Positions 779 to 36,056 of a stretch of DNA of 64,000 nt are shown in pieces. The first letter of the stretch is position 1. The number at the start of each line of letters is the position of its first letter. Position numbers and translations under genes: made by a program. The notes under the pieces are model-generated. The model saw nothing but the letters and a program-made list of their open reading frames with translations, was not told the origin of the DNA and ran no database searches. The stretch lies in sequence record NC_047776.2; one strand, written 5' to 3'. Source of the DNA: Escherichia phage ESCO5.

Positions 779-1771
779 TTAAATCTTCTCACTCCACCAT
801 TGAGGGTTGTTTAAGTACCATTCAATCGTTGAGTAGAGATCTTGTTCAAATGTAGAGTTTGCACTCCAACCCAGTTCAGACTCTATTTTAGAAGGATTGA
901 TTTCATAACGCAAGTCATGTCCTTTACGATCTTCAACAAAAGTTATCAAGTTGGAAGAAGGGTAGGTTCCTGCTTCTGGATGTACAGCATCTATGTAGTC
1001 ACAAACCATATAGATGATCTCCATATTGGTTTTGGGATTACGTGTTCCAACATTATACGTTTGACCTGGTTCTCCACCTGTTGCCACTTGAAGAATAGCT
1101 CGCGCATGATCCTCAACAAAAAGCCAGTCTCGCACCTGATCGCCTTTACCATACACCGGAATCTCTTTATTCGTCAAGATACTTGTGATGATTTTTGGGA
1201 TCAGCTTTTCTGGATGTTGATAAGGTCCAAAGTTATTGGAGCAGTTGGTTATCACAACAGGTAAACCGTAGGTACGGTACCAAGCTTTCACAAGATGGTC
1301 AGATGCTGCCTTAGACGCACTGTACGGGCTTGAAGGGGCATAAGCTGTCTCTTCGGTAAAGGGAACGCCAGAGTCTGCCATATCGCCGTACACTTCGTCT
1401 GTGGAGACATGTACGAACATCTTAAGTTTATTTTTTGGGAGGAGCCTTGCAGCTTCCAATAAATTGTATGTACCAATAATATTGGAGTCGATGAAAACTC
1501 GTGGATTCTTGATAGAATTATCCACATGACTCTCTGCCGCTAAGTGAATGATGAAATCGGGATTGCACTCTACTACTAAACTTTTGACCTGGGTTTCGTT
1601 TGCCAAATCTGTTATGCTCAGTTTAACGTGAGTGATATCGCCTACATTCTCAATATCTGCTGCATAGCCCATCTTATCAACGACAAAAACTTCGTTATTG
1701 GGATCTTGACAAAGAGAGCGCACCACGGCACTCCCAATAAAACCAAGACCACCTGTTACCAGATAGCGCAT
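779..1771 (-). CDS. rmlB: dTDP-glucose 4,6-dehydratase (RmlB)
   Basis: 330 aa; N-terminal Rossmann GGLGFIGS; catalytic YSASK (YxxxK) triad of short-chain dehydrogenases; immediately upstream of rmlA. Confidence 0.85.
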
Positions 1772-7754: not shown

Positions 7755-8753
7755 TCACCATTTAGTATGATTTGTTAAAAGTTGACGATGTTGAATCCAA
7801 CCTTTGAAATTGCCAGACCAAAACTTACCATTACGATCTACATGGGTAATACCTGGTTCCCAAGAGTTAAAATCCCAGGGAGCATTGATAAACAAATCTT
7901 CAAAACAGTTCTCTCCGTATTGTTCGCATGTTTCTTGCATTGGGGTGGCTTGATGTTCAAACGGAGAAGCATGAACCTTACGCCCAGTCAGCAAACGACC
8001 ATAGATATCTAAAGCTTTATCTTTAGTTGCATTCAAACGACGATAGCTAACCTGTGCACAACACGAAGCTGAAATAGCTTTGGCTTCTTCCAAAGTAAGC
8101 ACAACAACTTCTCCAGATTCATCTTGAACATAGTATCCACCAAAAACAAAATGATCGTCACCTTCTGTGCCAATATTATCATAGAAATGGTCTACATAAG
8201 GTGTGTGCCATTGCCCTGGTTTCAGCACTTCTGGTGTAGATTCTTCATACTCTTTGTGCATCTCTTTAGCCAAAGCTTCGATAGTAGGATCGGCTTCTTT
8301 GTCATCACGTAGCCACCAGAAATTTTCATATTCTGTTGCTGTCAGAACTGTTTTAATTCGTTGGAAAGGTTCCAGAAGACGGTTTGCAACTTGTTTGTGG
8401 TACCCTGCCAAAGAGAATTCTTCTGCAAAACGTGCTGCACTAAGCGCGGCAAGATCCCACCACTCTTGAGCAGTATAACCTGCATCAATAAGAGCATCAT
8501 GGTCAACACCTTTGTCCTGCATACCAGGTTGGTTAGCCCCAAAACGATAAGGACGAGCAGGCTGATTTCGCACCATTTCGATCAGTGTTTTAACAGGTAT
8601 AGCACGGCTAGAAGCAGCGTTACGACTGAACAGGCGGTGAGTCATCAGTTCTGAATGAATAATACGTGGATATTCAAGTTCGAAAGTTACAATCTCTTTT
8701 CCGTCTTCAGTGATGGAATGTGCAATAATACTAGCCGAAATCTGTTTTGTCAT
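7755..8753 (-). CDS. ThyX-like flavin-dependent thymidylate synthase family protein (divergent)
   Basis: 332 aa; THRLFSRNAASSR resembles the ThyX signature RHRxxSxNxxSxR but with T for the first R; longer than typical ThyX. Confidence 0.5.
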   Translation of the reverse strand: MTKQISASIIAHSITEDGKEIVTFELEYPRIIHSELMTHRLFSRNAASSRAIPVKTLIEMVRNQPARPYRFGANQPGMQDKGVDHDALIDAGYTAQEWWDLAALSAARFAEEFSLAGYHKQVANRLLEPFQRIKTVLTATEYENFWWLRDDKEADPTIEALAKEMHKEYEESTPEVLKPGQWHTPYVDHFYDNIGTEGDDHFVFGGYYVQDESGEVVVLTLEEAKAISASCCAQVSYRRLNATKDKALDIYGRLLTGRKVHASPFEHQATPMQETCEQYGENCFEDLFINAPWDFNSWEPGITHVDRNGKFWSGNFKGWIQHRQLLTNHTKW

Positions 8754-20764: not shown

Positions 20765-21042
20765 TTTGCATTCCTCTTGTTGTTGATAACATCCATAGCA
20801 GTATATGGTTTATTAGTGCCATGATACTCCAGAATCATTGGAGATCCTTCTTGCACTACTTCAAAGATACCATAAACAGAACTTTCAGCAAATACCATTT
20901 GCTTCGTACCTTCATCGTTTACAACGAGAGAAAACTTCTTGCCTGTCCCGTTGAGGATCTCGTATTTCTTGCCAGCCGTGAATAATCCAGAGTACCACTC
21001 ATTATCTGTTGCTTTTACACACTTCAGGAAAGTCTTGATCAT
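20761..21042 (-). CDS. hypothetical protein
   Basis: 93-aa ORF. Confidence 0.4.
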   Translation of the reverse strand: MIKTFLKCVKATDNEWYSGLFTAGKKYEILNGTGKKFSLVVNDEGTKQMVFAESSVYGIFEVVQEGSPMILEYHGTNKPYTAMDVINNKRNAK

Positions 21043-21607
21043 TTCTTTTTATCTCCTCTTTTAATCTATCTACTATACGAACATCATAGACGCCCTCTGT
21101 ATACATGTCAATAACTTCTTCAAGATAAACTTTTTTAGCTTTTCTGTAAGCTTCTTTTGCTGCCTCTTCTGTAGAAAAACTTCCAAGATAGAAGCCCTTA
21201 CCGAACTTACGGATGCTCGCTTGGTAGACCTTATCTCTCTTGTGATATGTAACACCCCTATAAGATGTCGAACCCATAAGTGCAAAATTCACATACTCTG
21301 GTATAAAGACACACGTGCTTGGTGAATAAACTTTAGAATCGGAAAGAAAATCCTTATCTAAAACTTTACCTTCCCAAGATTGACTCTCCATCCAGTTTTT
21401 GAAGTTAGAGAAGACCAACCATTCATCACAAACTTGAGAATTTTTGTATGCTGGCATCCTTGCCAACTGCTTCTCACAGTAACACCTACGCAACATATCC
21501 GTCCATCTCTCGTAATAAGGGCATGTCTTCCTTTTACCATCTTCTCCCCAAAAAGTAACTGGAACTTTTGAATCATTTATTCCTTTTCCGAACACTAGTT
21601 TTTTCAT
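21002..21607 (-). mobile_element. AP2-domain homing endonuclease-like gene (paralog of 4064-4723)
   Basis: 201 aa; YRGVTYHKRDKVYQASIRKFGKGFYLGSFSTEEAAKEAY AP2-like; shares VY(S/C)P..C.F(I/V)PEYVN segment with 4064-4723. Confidence 0.5.
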
Positions 21608-21926
21608 AAATTTTTAATACTCCGTTTTCTTTTGCACAGGTTGGTACTGTCTTAAGTCCTCTTCGTTTTGCATCTGGAAGATTGAGTGTCCACCATCCGA
21701 ACCAATAAATTTGGTCTGCCGTGAGTGGTTCAGCCATTGGATCTGCCTCCTGCTCCTCAAGACGTTGCAACGCTTCTTCAATCTTCTCGATTGGTGTGTC
21801 AAAGACGAATGCCTCCGTATCAAATTTATCTTTCTTAGGAACTGATTTGGCTACTTTGAGAACCTCGTTTTTCGGTTTCTTAGTAACGTTCTTTGGCTTT
21901 GATAACTTCTTCGGTGTTTTCGCCAC
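21573..21926 (-). CDS. hypothetical basic protein
   Basis: 117-aa ORF, lysine-rich N-terminus. Confidence 0.35.
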   Translation of the reverse strand: MAKTPKKLSKPKNVTKKPKNEVLKVAKSVPKKDKFDTEAFVFDTPIEKIEEALQRLEEQEADPMAEPLTADQIYWFGWWTLNLPDAKRRGLKTVPTCAKENGVLKIYEKTSVRKRNK

Positions 21927-22119
21927 TTACTACCTCCATACGATCTAAAAAGTCATTCACAAATCTCCAGTAACGTTGACCTGTTCTAAGATCTTCATAG
22001 ATAACCACAGGATCAAACACTTTAGATATTCCGGCGGGTTTTGGAAATTCCACTACTGTATATAAACCACCTTTTGCTACACAAGAATAGGTTACGCCTG
22101 TAATTGGATAGTTGCTCAT
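21880..22119 (-). CDS. hypothetical protein
   Basis: 79-aa ORF. Confidence 0.35.
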   Translation of the reverse strand: MSNYPITGVTYSCVAKGGLYTVVEFPKPAGISKVFDPVVIYEDLRTGQRYWRFVNDFLDRMEVVSGENTEEVIKAKERY

Positions 22120-22310
22120 TTCTTTACGTACTCCATGATTGGGGTATGGTCGCCAGTAAGCGTAACACGGCTGTAGGACACATCTTGTGTCTTCAATGTA
22201 TCAATCCACTCTAAGAAGTGTTCTTTCGCTTCTGTGTAGTTCTGTGTGCCTTTAACAACGTGTATACCATCTAGAGTTACACGGAATACCATTTGAATAA
22301 CGTCTTTCAT
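22116..22310 (-). CDS. hypothetical protein
   Basis: 64-aa ORF. Confidence 0.35.
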   Translation of the reverse strand: MKDVIQMVFRVTLDGIHVVKGTQNYTEAKEHFLEWIDTLKTQDVSYSRVTLTGDHTPIMEYVKK

Positions 22311-22423
22311 TTCTTACCTCCCTTGTTTTCAAAATAACTTACTAGAACATCGTGAACCACACACATGGCAAAAATCAGAACAATTGTTGTCAGGACTGGA
22401 TTCTCACTAATTAGTGCTATCAT
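22307..22423 (-). CDS. hypothetical small membrane protein
   Basis: Internal start of track ORF 22307-22504 (MIALISENPVLTTIVLIFAM...) preceded by GGAGGTGG RBS. Confidence 0.3.
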   Translation of the reverse strand: MIALISENPVLTTIVLIFAMCVVHDVLVSYFENKGGKK

Positions 22424-22730
22424 CTTTAACCACCTCCAATTGCCTTTCGAGTTTGACTTTGTTTGAGAACTGATAATGACACAACTTACATTGCATGTCA
22501 ACAATCTGATCGTGATTTAACCCTACAATTTTAACTTCCTTTGCACCATCCCACTCCAAATACTCAAAGCCATCCAAATGATTACTCTTGTCCAACAGGA
22601 ATGCTATCTGCTGCCATTCAATCTGAATGTCATTTAAATGATATGCTGCACAGAATATATCTTCATAGTAAAAAACGATCATTGTCATTGCTTCGTCCAG
22701 CACAACTACCTCTTGTCTTGTAAATCTCAT
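22407..22730 (-). CDS. hypothetical protein (first gene of the leftward early block)
   Basis: 107-aa ORF abutting the divergent intergenic region. Confidence 0.4.
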   Translation of the reverse strand: MRFTRQEVVVLDEAMTMIVFYYEDIFCAAYHLNDIQIEWQQIAFLLDKSNHLDGFEYLEWDGAKEVKIVGLNHDQIVDMQCKLCHYQFSNKVKLERQLEVVKDDSTN

Positions 22731-22974
22731 TCTAGCCTCCTAAACGCGTCTCTGACGCACTTTTTATATATAAGATGATAAATCACCTTACCTAGTAAGT
22801 GAACTTGCTCTACGAGCCTCTTATGAAGCTTATGTTATAGGCTATACTATTGCTACCTGTTTAAGCAAGGTTTTTGCACAAAGAAAATAATTTTTAATAA
22901 AACTCTTGACTTTTGTGTTCGAAGTATGCTACCCTAGAAATCTATTAACGAGCGCAGCGAGTTAAGGTTTTAGG

Positions 22975-23200
22975 TTGTTGATGTAGTACTCTGTACTCAA
23001 GTACTGTACTCCGTACTAGATTAATAATTATTAAATATTAATAATAAATAATTATTAGATCTAACAAACAGGTACAGTGTATCAGAACTGGTACGTACAG
23101 ATCAACTTCTATCAATTAAAAAATAAAATAATAAATTATTATAAATAATACTTGATCTATAGATCAGTATGAAGTACAGTACAGAACATCTTAACAAGAA
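22975..23200. promoter_or_regulatory. divergent AT-rich control region with GTAC-core repeats and GATC palindromes (candidate origin / promoter hub)
   Basis: Six or more GTACT/GTACAG repeats in both orientations flanking AT-only stretches; palindrome GATCTATAGATC; lies between minus-strand early and plus-strand blocks. Confidence 0.4.
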
Positions 23201-23211
23201 TGGAGGTGTGC

Positions 23212-23385
23212 AATGATTAGCGAGAATCCGTGCAAATGGCATCATGTACCTATTAAAGATTGTATGTCTTGTAATCCACGTTCTATTTATAACATTGCAT
23301 CTTATGACGATGACAATGTGTTAGACGATGATGAAGGCTGGGAGGATTTAGATTGGACTGGTTATGAAACCAAAAAAGGATAAAA
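23212..23385 (+). CDS. hypothetical small protein
   Basis: 57-aa ORF MISENPCKWHHVPIKDCMSCNPRS... with GGAGG RBS; below track cutoff. Confidence 0.35.
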
Positions 23386-23395
23386 TTATTCCTAG

Positions 23396-23424
23396 TTGAC
23401 TTAAGATATCCTTCGTGCTAAACT
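23396..23424 (+). promoter_or_regulatory. sigma70-like promoter
   Basis: TTGACT, 17-nt spacer, TAAACT. Confidence 0.4.
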
Positions 23425-23436
23425 AGAAGTGAGGAG

Positions 23437-23688
23437 ATGCCGATCACTCCCCATTTGGGGTTCGAAGGATATATGCAAAATAGTTTTTATTTTAGGCGCC
23501 GTGCTTGTAATAGGCATTTGACAAACCACTCCAGACGTGATAAAAATGGAGTCATCAAGGAATCAGACCTCTGTTCTATTTGCACAGGTTTGGCTTTTGA
23601 TGATAGTCCCGAAAGGGTTTATCAGCATCAATGTATAACAGACGTTCTCGTGTCAAACTTGGTAGAGGACGAACAACTAACAGATTAG
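23437..23688 (+). CDS. hypothetical protein
   Basis: 83-aa ORF with GAGGAG RBS. Confidence 0.4.
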   Translation: MPITPHLGFEGYMQNSFYFRRRACNRHLTNHSRRDKNGVIKESDLCSICTGLAFDDSPERVYQHQCITDVLVSNLVEDEQLTD

Positions 23689-23696
23689 GAGGAACA

Positions 23697-23945
23697 ATGT
23701 CTCTATTAGAAAAACACGTGTTTGAAGATGGTAACGGCAATGCAGTTTTTCTTTTCCATCCAGAAAAATACACATCTGAAAACAATGGTACAACTTCTAT
23801 TGTAATCACTAAAGATGTTAAAGTTATTGATTTCTTGGCTCTGATGCGAGAGATGGATCTTGAAATTAATACTTTTAACGCAGAAGCTTTGGTTGTTGCT
23901 CTTCTGGAAAAGAAAGATAGTGAAGAAGTAGCAGAATATGCTTAA
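23697..23945 (+). CDS. hypothetical protein
   Basis: Internal ATG of track ORF 23631-23945 preceded by AGGAGG (MSLLEKHVFEDGNGN...). Confidence 0.4.
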   Translation: MSLLEKHVFEDGNGNAVFLFHPEKYTSENNGTTSIVITKDVKVIDFLALMREMDLEINTFNAEALVVALLEKKDSEEVAEYA

Positions 23946-24192
23946 ATAACTATTGACAAACGTATCCTTCATATGTTAGGATACGTTCATCAAGTGTGGT
24001 AACAGGGTCGTTGACTTTTGTTAAGAGAGGCTTGCACTGCGGATAGTGTTAGAGACTACTTCTTCAGAGGTTAGCTACCAAAGAGGAAAAGGAATAGTCT
24101 CGGCTCAAGAACTTTTACGCTGAAAGTTGGGCTTGGTCTTAGAGAATGTAGCGGTTCCCTACAATCGTCAGCGTCTCTGTTACCACATTTAT

Positions 24193-24267
24193 GGCCCTGT
24201 AGCTCAATGGGAGAGCTGTCGGCTCATAACCGATAGGTAGCTGGATCGAAACCAGCCAGGGCCACCA
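24193..24267 (+). tRNA. tRNA with CAT anticodon (Met or Ile2)
   Basis: GGCCCTG acceptor pairs CAGGGCC; anticodon loop CTCATAA; encoded CCA. Confidence 0.7.
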
Positions 24268-24269
24268 AC

Positions 24270-24344
24270 GTCTTTATGGTGTAATGGATAGCACAGGAGT
24301 CTTCTAAACTCTTAGTCAAGGTTCGATTCCTTGTAAAGACACCA
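24270..24344 (+). tRNA. tRNA-Arg (TCT)
   Basis: Acceptor GTCTTTA/TAAAGAC; anticodon arm GGAGT-CTTCTAA-ACTCT; T-loop TTCGATT; CCA. Confidence 0.65.
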
Positions 24345-24540
24345 GAACATTTTAACATGAATTAGCTCAAGTGATTTGAACCCACTACTGATCATGGTGG
24401 CAGAGAATGAGGCAAGTATGTCAGACATTATAAACAAAGGCCACGGTTATATTAGAAGACATAAATGCTCGAAGAGCACCGTTCGTGGAGAACGGGGGTT
24501 GGTGGAGTCACCATTCATGGTAAAATGTTTTAAAAAACTA

Positions 24541-24890: not shown

Positions 24891-24978
24891 GGTGAGTTAA
24901 TTCCGTAGGGGTAGCGGGGCAGACTGTAAATCTGTTATCATTGCGATTCGGGTGGTTCGACTCCATCACTCACCACCA
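24891..24978 (+). tRNA. tRNA-Tyr (GTA), type II
   Basis: Acceptor GGTGAGT/ACTCACC, anticodon arm CAGA-CTGTAAA-TCTG, long variable arm, CCA. Confidence 0.6.
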
Positions 24979-29883: not shown

Positions 29884-31449
29884 GTGTCAACAGGAAAAAG
29901 AACGTACACTAAAAAGTCAGAATACTGGGACAAAGGTGCTGCAAATAAAGCTGCTCTCTCTCCAACAAAAGAAGCAGAGAAAGAGAAAACGTTACTCCTG
30001 TCACCTGAAATAGGAACGATCGGATTAAACTCAATCAAAGCATTTACGAATTTCATGCAGCCTTATGAGACTCGTTTCCCAGAATGTATTCGAACTTTTA
30101 AAGAGATGGGTGAAGACCCTGATGTAGCTACTGCTCTTGATGCTACGTATATCTTTGTAGATAGAGCATTCTTTGATTTTAAGATAAAATACAATGTAAG
30201 CTCGGCAAAGTCAAGAAAAGCTGCTAAGTTTATCGATTATATGTTACGTAATATGCAAGCCCCTCTACGTCAATATGTTAGATCACTTTTGACATATAAG
30301 CAATACGGGTTTGCATTCGCAGAAAAAGTTTATGAGTTGGATGAAGATCCTAAGAGTCCTTACTTTGGGTATTGGCGATTAACTAAGCTGGCTTTTAGAC
30401 CACAAGATACTCTTCACATGGCTCAACCTTTTACATATTCGGCAGACGGACGTTCTATCTTGTCTGTTAACCAGAATATCACCAATACAATGTTAGCCCC
30501 AGGTAATACAACTTTAGAAACTGGTATTAAAGAAATTCCTTTCAGTAAAGTTTTATTTGTTGGTAGCAACATTACAGAGAATAACCCACTAGGAGTTAGT
30601 CCGCTTTTAGCTGTATATCGTAGCTGGCGTGAAAAATCTCTTATTCAGGAATTTGAGGTTATTGGGGTATCTAAAGATTTAGGCGGTATGCCAGTTCTTA
30701 AGGTTCCAAGTGACATTCTAAACAGGGCATCTTTAGATCCTGCTGGGGATGAAGCACAATCTCTTCGAGTTCTCCAAGCCAACATCGCTAACCTGCACTC
30801 TGGTGAGCAAGCCTACATGGTATTGCCTTCAGACGTTTATGAAGGTACAGTGATGCGTCAATACGATCTTGTATTCCAAGGTGTTGATGGCACGGGTAAA
30901 CAGTTTGACACTCAAGCACTAATCAAACAACGCAAACTAGATATTTATAACCGCTTTGGTGCGGGTGTGTTGATTATGGGTGATGGTGATGCAGGAAGTT
31001 TTGCGCTTTCTGACAACAAACAAACACTATTGTCTCATTTTATTGAGCGAGATGTAGATATTGTTGTAGAAGCTATAAACTCTCAACTAATCCCTCAAAC
31101 ACTACGACTAAACAATATCTTCCTTTCTGATGAAGATATGCCTAAGTTTGTCAGTGGTGAAATGGGTGATCCTGATATTGAAGTAAATGCTAAAGCTATT
31201 CAACAGTTGGTAGCCTCTGGTGCAATACCTTTAACCCCAGAAGTTATTAACGAGTTCCTTGAAAAAATTGGTTTTGAATATCGCATCCCTGACGATATTG
31301 TTGCCAATAAAGAGAAATTCTTTGAATTCATGGATAACTATATGCCTGACAAAACTTCACGATCAGGAGATGGTTTAGCTACAGCAGGGACTGGAACATC
31401 TGATACTGTTTCTGCTTTAGATCCTTCAGCACAAAACCTGTCGAATTAA
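29884..31449 (+). CDS. portal protein (putative)
   Basis: 521 aa, GTG start with GGAGGAA RBS; size and position directly after terminase. Confidence 0.55.
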   Translation: MSTGKRTYTKKSEYWDKGAANKAALSPTKEAEKEKTLLLSPEIGTIGLNSIKAFTNFMQPYETRFPECIRTFKEMGEDPDVATALDATYIFVDRAFFDFKIKYNVSSAKSRKAAKFIDYMLRNMQAPLRQYVRSLLTYKQYGFAFAEKVYELDEDPKSPYFGYWRLTKLAFRPQDTLHMAQPFTYSADGRSILSVNQNITNTMLAPGNTTLETGIKEIPFSKVLFVGSNITENNPLGVSPLLAVYRSWREKSLIQEFEVIGVSKDLGGMPVLKVPSDILNRASLDPAGDEAQSLRVLQANIANLHSGEQAYMVLPSDVYEGTVMRQYDLVFQGVDGTGKQFDTQALIKQRKLDIYNRFGAGVLIMGDGDAGSFALSDNKQTLLSHFIERDVDIVVEAINSQLIPQTLRLNNIFLSDEDMPKFVSGEMGDPDIEVNAKAIQQLVASGAIPLTPEVINEFLEKIGFEYRIPDDIVANKEKFFEFMDNYMPDKTSRSGDGLATAGTGTSDTVSALDPSAQNLSN

Positions 31450-31477
31450 AAATATTTAATATTTTTTAATTTTTCTA

Positions 31478-31506
31478 TTGACAAAACAACAAATATCCTG
31501 TAGACT
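31478..31506 (+). promoter_or_regulatory. sigma70-like promoter
   Basis: TTGACA, 17-nt spacer, TAGACT. Confidence 0.4.
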
Positions 31507-35568: not shown

Positions 35569-36056
35569 TGGAAAGTGAGATCTTACCAGGTGATGATACG
35601 GATTGGGAAACCATTATCAAAAAGATGATGGACCTTGAACAAGTTCAAATCGAAGCTGGTTTTTTAACAAACAAAAGGCATCCTGAATCAGATCTCACTA
35701 TTCCTGCAATAGCAGCTATTCAACAATATGGTAATGAAACAAATAACATACCTGCTCGCCCTTTTATAACAGATGGCGCTGTTATCTCACAGAACAATAT
35801 CGCTAAAAAGATGAAGCAGGTGTTTGCAAATTACTTAATGAATAATGTCGGGTTAGCTGTTTTTGAGCCTATAGCGAGAGCCTCTAGAGAAGGAATAGCT
35901 CAAGCGATTGCAATGCAACGTTATCGTCCTTTATCTCCTGTGACAATTAAGATACGACAAGATAAAGGCAACTATTCTAATCATATCTTAATAGATACGG
36001 CACACATGATAAATGCAATCGAAACAAAAATCACAAAAAGCAAGTCTAAAAAATAA
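35568..36056 (+). CDS. head-tail joining / neck protein (putative)
   Basis: 162-aa ORF, start overlaps previous stop. Confidence 0.35.
   Translation: MESEILPGDDTDWETIIKKMMDLEQVQIEAGFLTNKRHPESDLTIPAIAAIQQYGNETNNIPARPFITDGAVISQNNIAKKMKQVFANYLMNNVGLAVFEPIARASREGIAQAIAMQRYRPLSPVTIKIRQDKGNYSNHILIDTAHMINAIETKITKSKSKK

Follow-up and report, generated by a model that had tools for sequence, protein, structure and literature searches.

The locus

The subject of this report is the 482-bp spacer at positions 22731-23212 of a 64,000-nucleotide stretch of the Escherichia phage ESCO5 genome (NC_047776.2) – the stretch as a whole being called the window below, with positions referring to it unless stated otherwise. 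On its left lies the leftward gene REC_00203 (22407-22730), and on its right a rightward open reading frame (ORF), REC_00204 (23213-23383). Whole-genome figures are those of the phage vB_EcoM_REC record (REC; OM386667.1, 156,300 bp; genus Phapecoctavirus, subfamily Stephanstirmvirinae), from which the window differs at one of its 64,000 bases and to which a 3-kb query around the spacer (21500-24500) is 100% identical. A window coordinate equals the OM386667.1 record coordinate minus 34,473, which puts the region at about 57.5 kb of the record.

To the left of the spacer, the minus strand carries DNA-metabolism genes; beyond it, the plus strand carries small ORFs, an array of 10 tRNAs, lysis genes, the terminase and structural genes. 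The first rightward ORF encodes 56 amino acids, is conserved and matches phrog_26411. As the initial annotation had pointed out, this is the only long non-coding stretch between the leftward and rightward blocks, and it is the sole divergent junction of the window. A hidden gene or non-coding RNA was ruled out, since the ORF check found no credible ORF in 22731-23212 and the spacer gave no Rfam match at E<=1. The 'repeat_region' features placed in three public records (unlabelled, 55 bp each) proved uninformative, and the flanking protein had no match in an IMG/VR search. The features to which the text refers are the following.

22731-22768, minus strand: 5' leader of gene 22407-22730, with a Shine-Dalgarno sequence GGAGG (22736-22740 on the plus strand) and a hairpin GCGTCAGAGACGC (22746-22758); invariant in 11 relatives
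22803-22775, minus strand: PL, predicted leftward sigma70-type promoter; -35 TTCACT (22803-22798), 17-bp spacer, -10 TATCAT (22780-22775)
22884-22902, plus strand: 19-nt A/T-only run directly 5' of the P1 -35, resembling an upstream (UP) element; sixth-longest A/T-only run of the genome
22906-22935, plus strand: P1, predicted rightward promoter; -35 TTGACT (22906-22911), 18-bp spacer, extended -10 TGc-TACCCT (22927-22935)
22949-22961, plus strand: conserved box CGAGCGCAGCGAG, predicted to lie at about +8 to +20 of the P1 transcript
22985-23019, no strand: cluster of five GTACT units, AGTACTCTGTACTCAAGTACTGTACTCCGTACTAG, 5-8 bp apart; lineage-specific, its right part belonging to arm 1 of the inverted repeat
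23020-23057, no strand: A/T-only block 1 (38 nt), the genome's longest A/T run; internally palindromic and lineage-specific
23001-23057, no strand: arm 1 of a large imperfect inverted repeat, with arm 2 (23127-23182) as its partner
23058-23113, no strand: central spacer with GATCTAACA (23058-23066), GGTACAGT (23071-23078), the palindrome GTACGTAC (23091-23098) and GATCAAC (23100-23106)
23114-23150, plus strand: A/T-only block 2 (37 nt), UP-element-like, adjoining the P2 -35; lowest duplex stability genome-wide
23152-23180, plus strand: P2, predicted rightward promoter; -35 TTGATC (23152-23157), 17-bp spacer, -10 TACAGT (23175-23180)
23174-23184, no strand: GTACAGTACAG, overlapping the P2 -10 and start site, within arm 2 of the inverted repeat
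23202-23215, plus strand: Shine-Dalgarno sequence GGAGG (23202-23206) and ATG (23213) of the 56-aa ORF

Three predicted promoters and their conservation

Six types of the region were compared – REC, two versions from the phiWec lineage, phi92, Klebsiella phage phi1_175008 and Citrobacter phage Tr1 – among which the amino-acid identity of the flanking genes drops to 33-44%. Across all six, P1, the box, an A/T run and P2 are kept in place, while the sequence between them has diverged. At closer range, about 63 Phapecoctavirus records have the same spacer at 94-100% identity. A comparison of 11 close relatives shows next to no variation in the box, the A/T blocks and the hexamers of the promoters, the substitutions being concentrated in the GTACs.

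P1 has the form TTGAC[A/T]-N17/18-TACCCT, preceded by TGn, in every one of the six lineages, and 14-17 nt after TACCCT there always follows GAGCG[C/A]AGCGAG, the core of the box; the 30 nt upstream of P1 in REC are 80% A/T. The combination of P1 and box occurs three times in the genome (window 22906-22961; record 134,785-134,841, minus strand; L011:16274-16330, minus strand), with the common pattern TTGACT-N17/18-TG[c/g]TACCCTA-N11-14-CGAGCG(N1-2)AGCGAG; in the two paralogues the box reads GAGCGATAGCGAG and lies 14-15 nt after TACCCT. Eight IMG/VR loci of Stephanstirmvirinae-like type contain the same module, which at some of these immediately precedes an ORF. Judged by these recurrences, the P1 module is a repeated class of predicted promoter and leader. 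Its 16.3-kb copy runs antisense to its neighbours in a gap of 360 bp and is not followed by an ORF; this copy may make a non-coding RNA.

P2 follows the general form TTGA[C/T][T/C]-N17/18-TAnnnT, and again it does so in all six lineages, at a distance of about 25-35 nt from the start codon of the first rightward ORF. Its counterparts read TTGACT-17-TAGAGT in phi92, TTGACT-18-TAGAGT in phiWec and TTGACC-17-TACACT in the Klebsiella phage, and in two close relatives of REC, KKP3954 and BI-EHEC, the -10 is TACAAT. An A/T-only run of 16-38 nt ends 1-12 nt before P2 in each of the six (47-50 nt long in two phi92-like IMG/VR contigs), and the 35 nt upstream of the -35 are 83-97% A/T in all lineages. 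This design of a pure A/T block joined to a promoter recurs after the portal gene (window 31444-31495, record 65,917-65,968), where a 31-nt A/T-only run lies directly 5' of TTGACA-17-TAGACT. The palindrome GATCTATAGATC (23154-23165) coincides with the -35 and spacer of P2, and TAGATCT recurs within the P2 spacer of phi92 and phiWec. A leftward promoter-like sequence, TTCATA-17-TATTAT (23145-23173, minus strand; 9/12), stands face to face with P2 and has the palindromic spacer in common with it; going by its consensus match only, this site could give antisense transcription into A/T block 2.

PL was recovered by the scan in three lineages, namely REC, the Klebsiella phage (positional equivalent TTGACA-17-TATCAT) and Tr1 (TTGACT-17-TACCAT), and is invariant or nearly so in close relatives. 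In PL, P1 and P2 alike, the hexamers resemble TTGACA/TATAAT, are 17-18 bp apart and are co-oriented with the downstream gene. Sites of this general kind are abundant, the genome containing 73 matches to TTGAC-N16-18-TAnnnT (58 of the 73 co-oriented with their own gene block). A separate family occupies record 144-155 kb: about 15 near-identical early promoter modules of the form TTGACA-16-TAAGAT/TAATAT, every small early gene having its own, with a conserved hairpin of the GGCGG...CCGCC type after each module, at the 5' end of the transcript.

The closest known systems are sigma70 promoters with UP elements, such as E. coli rrnB P1 and the early promoters of coliphages. Shared with these are the hexamer spacing of 17-18 bp, the extended -10 (TGn) of P1, an A/T tract that fills about -38 to -75 at P2, and the co-orientation of promoters and genes. 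The phage region differs from them in being 100% A/T over 37-38 nt, which is longer than a canonical UP element, in the weakness of the P2 hexamers, in the conserved transcribed box CGAGCGCAGCGAG of P1, which has no known counterpart, and in that its starts are predicted. No LexA, IHF or exact TrpR site was found in the spacer. GTACT-N9-AGTAC does resemble the TrpR operator, but its spacer is wrong (N9 instead of N8).

The GTAC cluster, the A/T blocks and an inverted duplication

The initial annotation had described this spacer as one of GTAC-core repeats, pure A/T runs and GATC palindromes, and every string that it quoted occurs where it had placed it. GTAC starts at 22986, 22993, 23001, 23006, 23013, 23072, 23091, 23095, 23174 and 23179; 10 of the window's 72 GTACs thereby fall within 22986-23183, against at most 6 in the densest 200-bp window of 20,000 random placements, so that the repeats are real and their clustering highly non-random. 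Nowhere else in the 156-kb genome do GTACs cluster as strongly, and the cluster lies in a sequence where GTAC is about 3-fold depleted (72 observed vs 226 expected in the window) and has the lowest Markov ratio among 4-bp palindromes (0.36). The second-densest cluster (six sites, window 1272-1470) is inside the dTDP-glucose 4,6-dehydratase gene of an rml-like sugar operon, as would fit a gene that came from bacteria more recently and from which GTAC has yet to be purged. The pure A/T runs likewise stand out, 23020-23057 (38 nt) and 23114-23150 (37 nt) being the genome's two longest, with the next at 31 nt.

The GATC features fared differently. The four GATC sites (starting at 23058, 23100, 23154 and 23162) and the palindrome GATCTATAGATC are indeed present, but neither exceeds chance: random placement gives at least four GATCs in 110 bp with P ~0.92, and the genome has 44 perfect 12-bp palindromes vs ~51 expected from its composition. 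In relatives, the GATC count of the region varies from 1 to 8. In short, the observation stands for the GTAC cluster and the A/T blocks, which are genuine and exceptional, and falls for the GATC features; it is confirmed in part.

The occurrence of GTAC repeats in both orientations, also correctly noted, is explained by an imperfect inverted duplication: 23001-23057 repeats, in the opposite orientation, the segment 23127-23182, which comprises A/T block 2 and the P2 core. The two arms (z 4.7-5 vs shuffles) flank a 69-bp core, and the inverted repeat dominates both the RNA and the single-stranded DNA (ssDNA) folds; A/T blocks 1 and 2 are 72% identical in register. Other lineages have little of this: the spacer holds 10 GTACs in the REC type vs 1-3 in the other five, the cluster of five GTACTs is not present in the phiWec, phi92, Klebsiella and Citrobacter relatives, and among the six lineages the two long A/T runs are confined to the REC type. 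By this comparison, the GTAC repeats and A/T block 1 are best described as an insertion relative to the other lineages. In the central spacer, GATCTAACA belongs to the palindrome TTAGATCTAA (23055-23064), and GATCTAAC is found in phi92 and Citrobacter Tr1 as well.

Close relatives have, moreover, been losing these sites. BI-EHEC keeps 1 of the 10 spacer GTACs and KKP3954 keeps 3, the changes always being GTAC to ATAC or GTAT; GGTACAG is the sole GTAC kept in the former and one of the three kept in the latter. Because nine and seven of the ten have gone in these two phages, the GTAC tetranucleotide must be dispensable in the cluster. The units are 5-8 bp apart and not in helical phase, and a repeat search of the spacer returned only two-copy families and no phased array of at least three ~17-22-bp direct repeats. 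Being lineage-specific, partly a duplication of the P2 core, absent in sister lineages and eroded in two relatives, the GTAC repeats are therefore not classical iterons.

The arms of the inverted repeat have not changed wholly independently. One C-G to U-A double change between them is found in two relatives, and the duplexes that BI-EHEC and KKP3954 form from their own arms (-16.1 and -15.4 kcal/mol) are stronger than the additive expectation (about -4.9 and -10.4 kcal/mol, respectively). Such compensation could arise from quasi-palindrome templated mutation.

Genome-wide loss of GTAC

Depletion extends to the entire genome, in which GTAC is the most depleted 4-bp palindrome. Its Markov ratio is 0.34 in REC, 0.14 in BI-EHEC and 0.16 in KKP3954; it rises to 0.46 in the rV5-like phage Murica, 0.65 in phiWec, 0.71 in the phi92-like type, 0.79 in Citrobacter Tr1 and 0.83 in the Klebsiella-like type, the E. 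coli K-12 sample standing at 0.85. Of the GTAC sites of REC in about 50 kb of sequence, 28 of 47 are gone in BI-EHEC and 25 of 45 in KKP3954 (56-60%), compared with 4-29% for other 4-bp palindromes, with no GTAC gains in BI-EHEC and two in KKP3954. The losses are partly parallel, several sites having been replaced differently in the two phages.

The BI-EHEC assembly is nanopore-only (PMC8686590), and a sequencing artefact was accordingly considered. It was rejected for the substitutions, which are overwhelmingly synonymous: 15 of 18 substitution-type losses in BI-EHEC and 9 of 13 in KKP3954, against a frame-blind expectation of 6.5±2.0 and 3.9±1.6 (P ~5e-5 and 0.003). The losses are therefore mostly real. 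Insertions are another matter, as KKP3954 has 1-2-nt insertions at five GTACs (matching REC record positions 35861, 42873, 67723, 71976 and 77297) that break the frame of conserved genes, among them those for thymidylate synthase and a head decoration protein. These GTAC indels are probably sequencing errors, whose concentration at GTAC could hint at a chemical modification of GTAC in virion DNA.

The pattern resembles restriction-site avoidance in phage genomes without modification, with GTAC depleted relative to both composition and host, and with its loss ongoing through synonymous change. Simple avoidance does not, however, predict that a 10-site cluster should survive in the non-coding DNA of the same lineage. 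The BASEL study found this phage group to be exceptionally restriction-sensitive and without protection (PMC8594841), which fits the avoidance of GTAC sites.

Two phage genes look like methyltransferases, and neither is of the Dam family. REC_00261 (L013:6477-7271) is N6-adenine-type methyltransferase-like, with EPSAGEG...NPPF motifs and a sub-threshold match to the Eco57I family; its homologues are found in 63 main-lineage records (>=95% identity) and in Vequintavirus (~53%). REC_00133 (L011:21952-22635) is a short, widespread C5-cytosine methyltransferase-like gene with a sub-threshold C5-type match.

Possible replication-related features

The initial annotation had proposed a replication origin with iterons and Dam-sensitive sites, and in that form the proposal was not supported: the GTAC units are tightly spaced, lineage-specific and mutable, GATC is not enriched, and neither a Dam-family methylase nor an initiator is encoded nearby. 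A Dam/GATC cluster as an origin feature was rejected accordingly. No initiator or HTH domain was found in the neighbouring ORFs, and the search for DnaA boxes gave one relaxed match, TTTTGCACA (22872; two mismatches to TTATCCACA), and no cluster. A literature search for origin data on this genus found nothing specific.

The cumulative GC skew, which had been suggested as a check, does have a minimum at the region (~57.5 kb), but there is a second one at 136.49 kb, besides maxima at 19.6 and 100.5 kb, and it cannot discriminate. All four turning points of the whole-genome curve coincide with strand switches, and the same behaviour has been reported for rV5 (PMC3606486). Since the skew turns at every strand switch, it is uninformative for the origin, and the attempt to locate the origin by it was abandoned.

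What does set the region apart is its physical instability. The stretch 22994-23194 is the genome's least stable duplex by nearest-neighbour calculation, at all window sizes from 40 to 300 bp (z 4.0-5.2), and the predicted P1 lies a short way upstream of it: the P1 -10 ends at 22935, about 85 bp before the start of A/T block 1 at 23020. P2 adjoins A/T block 2. The region has a candidate unwinding element with a predicted promoter in front of it, and lacks phased iterons and an adjacent initiator.

Transcription-primed origins of this general layout – a promoter, then an unwinding element – are exemplified by T4 ori(uvsY) and ori(34) and by the primary origin of T7. With these the region shares a predicted promoter followed by a candidate unwinding element within ~100 bp, a position in the intergenic head of a transcription unit, and a phage that encodes a T7-gp4-like primase/helicase and its own polymerase. 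It departs from them in that the promoters are of host sigma70 type and half of the A/T element is lineage-specific.

A positional analogue exists in Murica (rV5-like, Vequintavirus), whose gap L103:7372-8012 heads the same tRNA/lysis/terminase block and probably corresponds to the box that the rV5 paper marks as 'non-coding'. This gap contains a GTAC cluster, GTACTAGATCT followed by an A/T-only block of ~42 nt, four dyad-symmetric iterons of 22 nt (7855-7940, 21-22 bp phasing) and the winged helix-turn-helix (wHTH) gene gp208. The product of gp208, confined to Vequintavirus, matches replication-initiator families weakly, and records differ in calling it a 'replication initiation protein' or a 'transcriptional regulator'. 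Both phages thus have a GTAC cluster, the same position and a similar junction with the A/T run, of the general form GTACTAGAT(C)T – GTACTAGAT in REC, and GTACTAGATCT in Murica as well as in UP17. Like lambda-type iteron origins, too, the REC region has an A/T-only block beside short repeats. Unlike these and Murica, it has no phased 19-22-nt iterons and no adjacent wHTH gene, its GTAC units being 5-8 bp apart; Murica-type iterons and a gp208 homologue were looked for in REC and are absent. Homology of the two elements was rejected, as their alignment is not above chance, and the likeness is an architectural parallel only. By analogy, it makes a second, replication-related function of the REC region possible.

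Outside the window, an alternative origin candidate is offered by a non-coding stretch of ~800 bp at record 142,856-143,665. It contains A/T-rich direct repeats at 143,075-143,284 (29 nt x3; 72 nt x2 at 82% identity) that form the second least stable region of the genome; the genes beside it have no informative domains that we could find.

A probable divergent promoter hub and its rivals

Conserved positions of P1 and P2, the abundance of sigma70-type sites and the repetition of the P1 module lead us to read the core of the spacer as a divergent promoter hub for host RNA polymerase, which is also the better half of the earlier interpretation: the divergent promoter hub that it envisaged is well supported by conserved and properly spaced -35/-10 pairs, the iteron/Dam origin is not, and as a whole it is partly supported. 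We consider it probable, if well short of certain, that the spacer is a transcription control region that heads two divergent gene blocks and is served by host sigma70 RNA polymerase, the GTAC repeats being an accessory duplication. From the observed sequence statistics, comparative conservation and inverted duplication we infer promoter activity, a UP-element role and start sites as follows. PL would serve the DNA-metabolism block to the left, and P1 and P2 everything to the right, from the small ORFs and tRNAs to the lysis, packaging and structural block; the 37-nt A/T block 2 would act as the UP element of P2; and GATCTATAGATC would represent the -35 and spacer of P2 and not a Dam switch. 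The GTAC repeats with A/T block 1 are an addition of this lineage and arose from an inverted duplication of A/T block 2 and the P2 core, plus short tandem duplications. So understood, the region is an unannotated example of a familiar type of element, an otherwise ordinary promoter region whose one oddity is the GTAC paradox, with a possible link to the N6-adenine methyltransferase.

Several points weigh against this account. Each of the P2 hexamers matches the consensus at just four of six positions, and the P1 -10, TACCCT, would be a poor one but for the TG that extends it; the duplex instability of the stretch exceeds what a UP element needs; and a literature search for transcription-start or transcriptome data on this phage genus found none. 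Neutral duplication gives no explanation of why a lineage that depletes GTAC genome-wide should keep a 10-site cluster, nor of the partly compensatory changes in the arms, an argument that rests on two genomes. In Murica, finally, the analogous GTAC cluster with GTACTAGATCT and an A/T block adjoins iterons and a wHTH gene.

In one rival reading, a protein peculiar to the lineage – a regulator or REC_00261 itself – would recognise GTAC, and the repeats would be its operators or a switch sensitive to methylation; it would tune P1/P2 read-through or promoter use and would also be linked to the genome-wide avoidance of GTAC. The strongest concentration of the motif does sit in an otherwise GTAC-avoiding genome, strong depletion and a control-region cluster co-occur in both lineages with the N6-adenine methylase (the main lineage and Vequintavirus), two GTACs overlap the P2 -10 and start site, and the near-operator GTACT-N9-AGTAC is present. 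Yet the lineage correlation comes from small samples and few lineages, REC_00261, whose GTAC specificity is putative, has a sub-threshold Eco57I-family match and no PDB relative, and the TrpR-like pattern has the wrong spacer. Independent dimer sites would hardly fit at a spacing of 5-8 bp, and the array has been all but dismantled in BI-EHEC (9 of 10 sites lost) and much reduced in KKP3954 (7 of 10), all of which makes a switch of this kind unlikely. Somewhat better placed, and compatible with a promoter hub, is a transcription-primed origin, in which a P1, P2 or antisense transcript invades the A/T blocks, giving an R-loop or open complex that the primase-helicase and polymerase of the phage then exploit. 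It draws on the record instability of 22994-23194 and on P1 lying upstream of A/T block 1, on the skew minimum, on the inverted repeat around the 69-bp core (ssDNA fold z -4.45), on the replication enzymes that the phage encodes, and on the Murica analogue with its iterons and wHTH protein. Against it, the skew tracks transcription and has its further minimum at 136.49 kb; REC has no such iterons, gp208 homologue or adjacent initiator-like gene, and its elements cannot be aligned with those of Murica above chance; sister lineages, which must still replicate, do without A/T block 1 and the GTAC repeats; and the rival site at record 143,075-143,284 has real iteron-like repeats. We regard this origin as rather doubtful. 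Still more speculative, and in our view quite improbable, is a union of the two ideas, by which the palindromic module (GTAC repeats, A/T block 1, 69-bp core, A/T block 2, GTAC repeats) would be the primary transcription-activated origin, its GTACs being methylated by the lineage's N6-adenine methyltransferase so as to couple promoter firing with initiation. If true, it would be a phage-private analogue of Dam control at oriC, and would explain why GTAC-avoiding lineages concentrate GTAC here and, in rV5-like phages, beside an iteron array.

A further alternative is an RNA-level element: a P1 leader of ~270 nt in which a long-range helix (23000-23022 with 23160-23182) controls processing, stability or translation of the first rightward ORF. 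The fold of 22943-23215 is stable (minimum free energy -60.4 kcal/mol, z -3.5), the Shine-Dalgarno sequence lies within a small hairpin, and both the C-G to U-A double change in two relatives and the stronger-than-additive own-arm duplexes of BI-EHEC and KKP3954 speak for it. The helix, however, merely equals the DNA inverted repeat, P2 transcripts would lack its 5' arm, and the structure is absent in sister lineages and belongs to no Rfam family; the compensation comes from two sequences, is expected about half the time when mirrored palindromic GTACs are hit by transitions, and could also be the product of quasi-palindrome templated mutation. An RNA element is, on balance, very unlikely. Least credible of all is a packaging (pac) site, or a physical end of the genome, ahead of the terminase block. 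The large terminase gene is 4.5 kb downstream, and one public record (nieznany) starts and ends inside the region; the ends of that record, however, overlap over window 23003-23239, one copy having a 66-nt internal deletion, and the other 60-odd records were opened at unrelated positions. Since the ends overlap, they mark an assembly break at a polymorphic or repetitive locus and not a defined end, and a terminus or pac site was rejected; the literature search found no termini reported for this genus. The 66 deleted nucleotides (window 23077-23142) comprise part of the central spacer and most of A/T block 2, which suggests that the phage stock contained a deletion variant or that the assembly went wrong at the inverted repeat.

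Significance of the region

Among therapy phages of E. coli, the Phapecoctaviruses and their rV5- and phi92-like relatives rank with those isolated most often. For this group, the promoter-hub reading provides precise coordinates for three predicted promoters and a conserved promoter-proximal box, and the search for origins names as candidates the present region and record 143.1-143.3 kb in REC, together with a lambda-like iteron array in rV5-like phages. The lineage-specific and ongoing purge of GTAC points to GTAC-specific restriction pressure or to a GTAC-directed activity of the phage, either of which would be relevant to host range and engineering.

Neighbouring features

Two further observations concern the surroundings of the spacer. 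On its left, a minus-strand gene at window 21002-21607 specifies an HNH endonuclease that carries an AP2 domain. In most relatives the match to the 3-kb query begins only at about window 21627, the HNH gene being present in REC and a few others (536P1, EF1-1), so that it appears to be a variable, mobile insertion. On its right, the tRNA array contains an eleventh tRNA-like Rfam match at window 24891-24975, which is low-scoring (39 bits) and was not called by ARAGORN.

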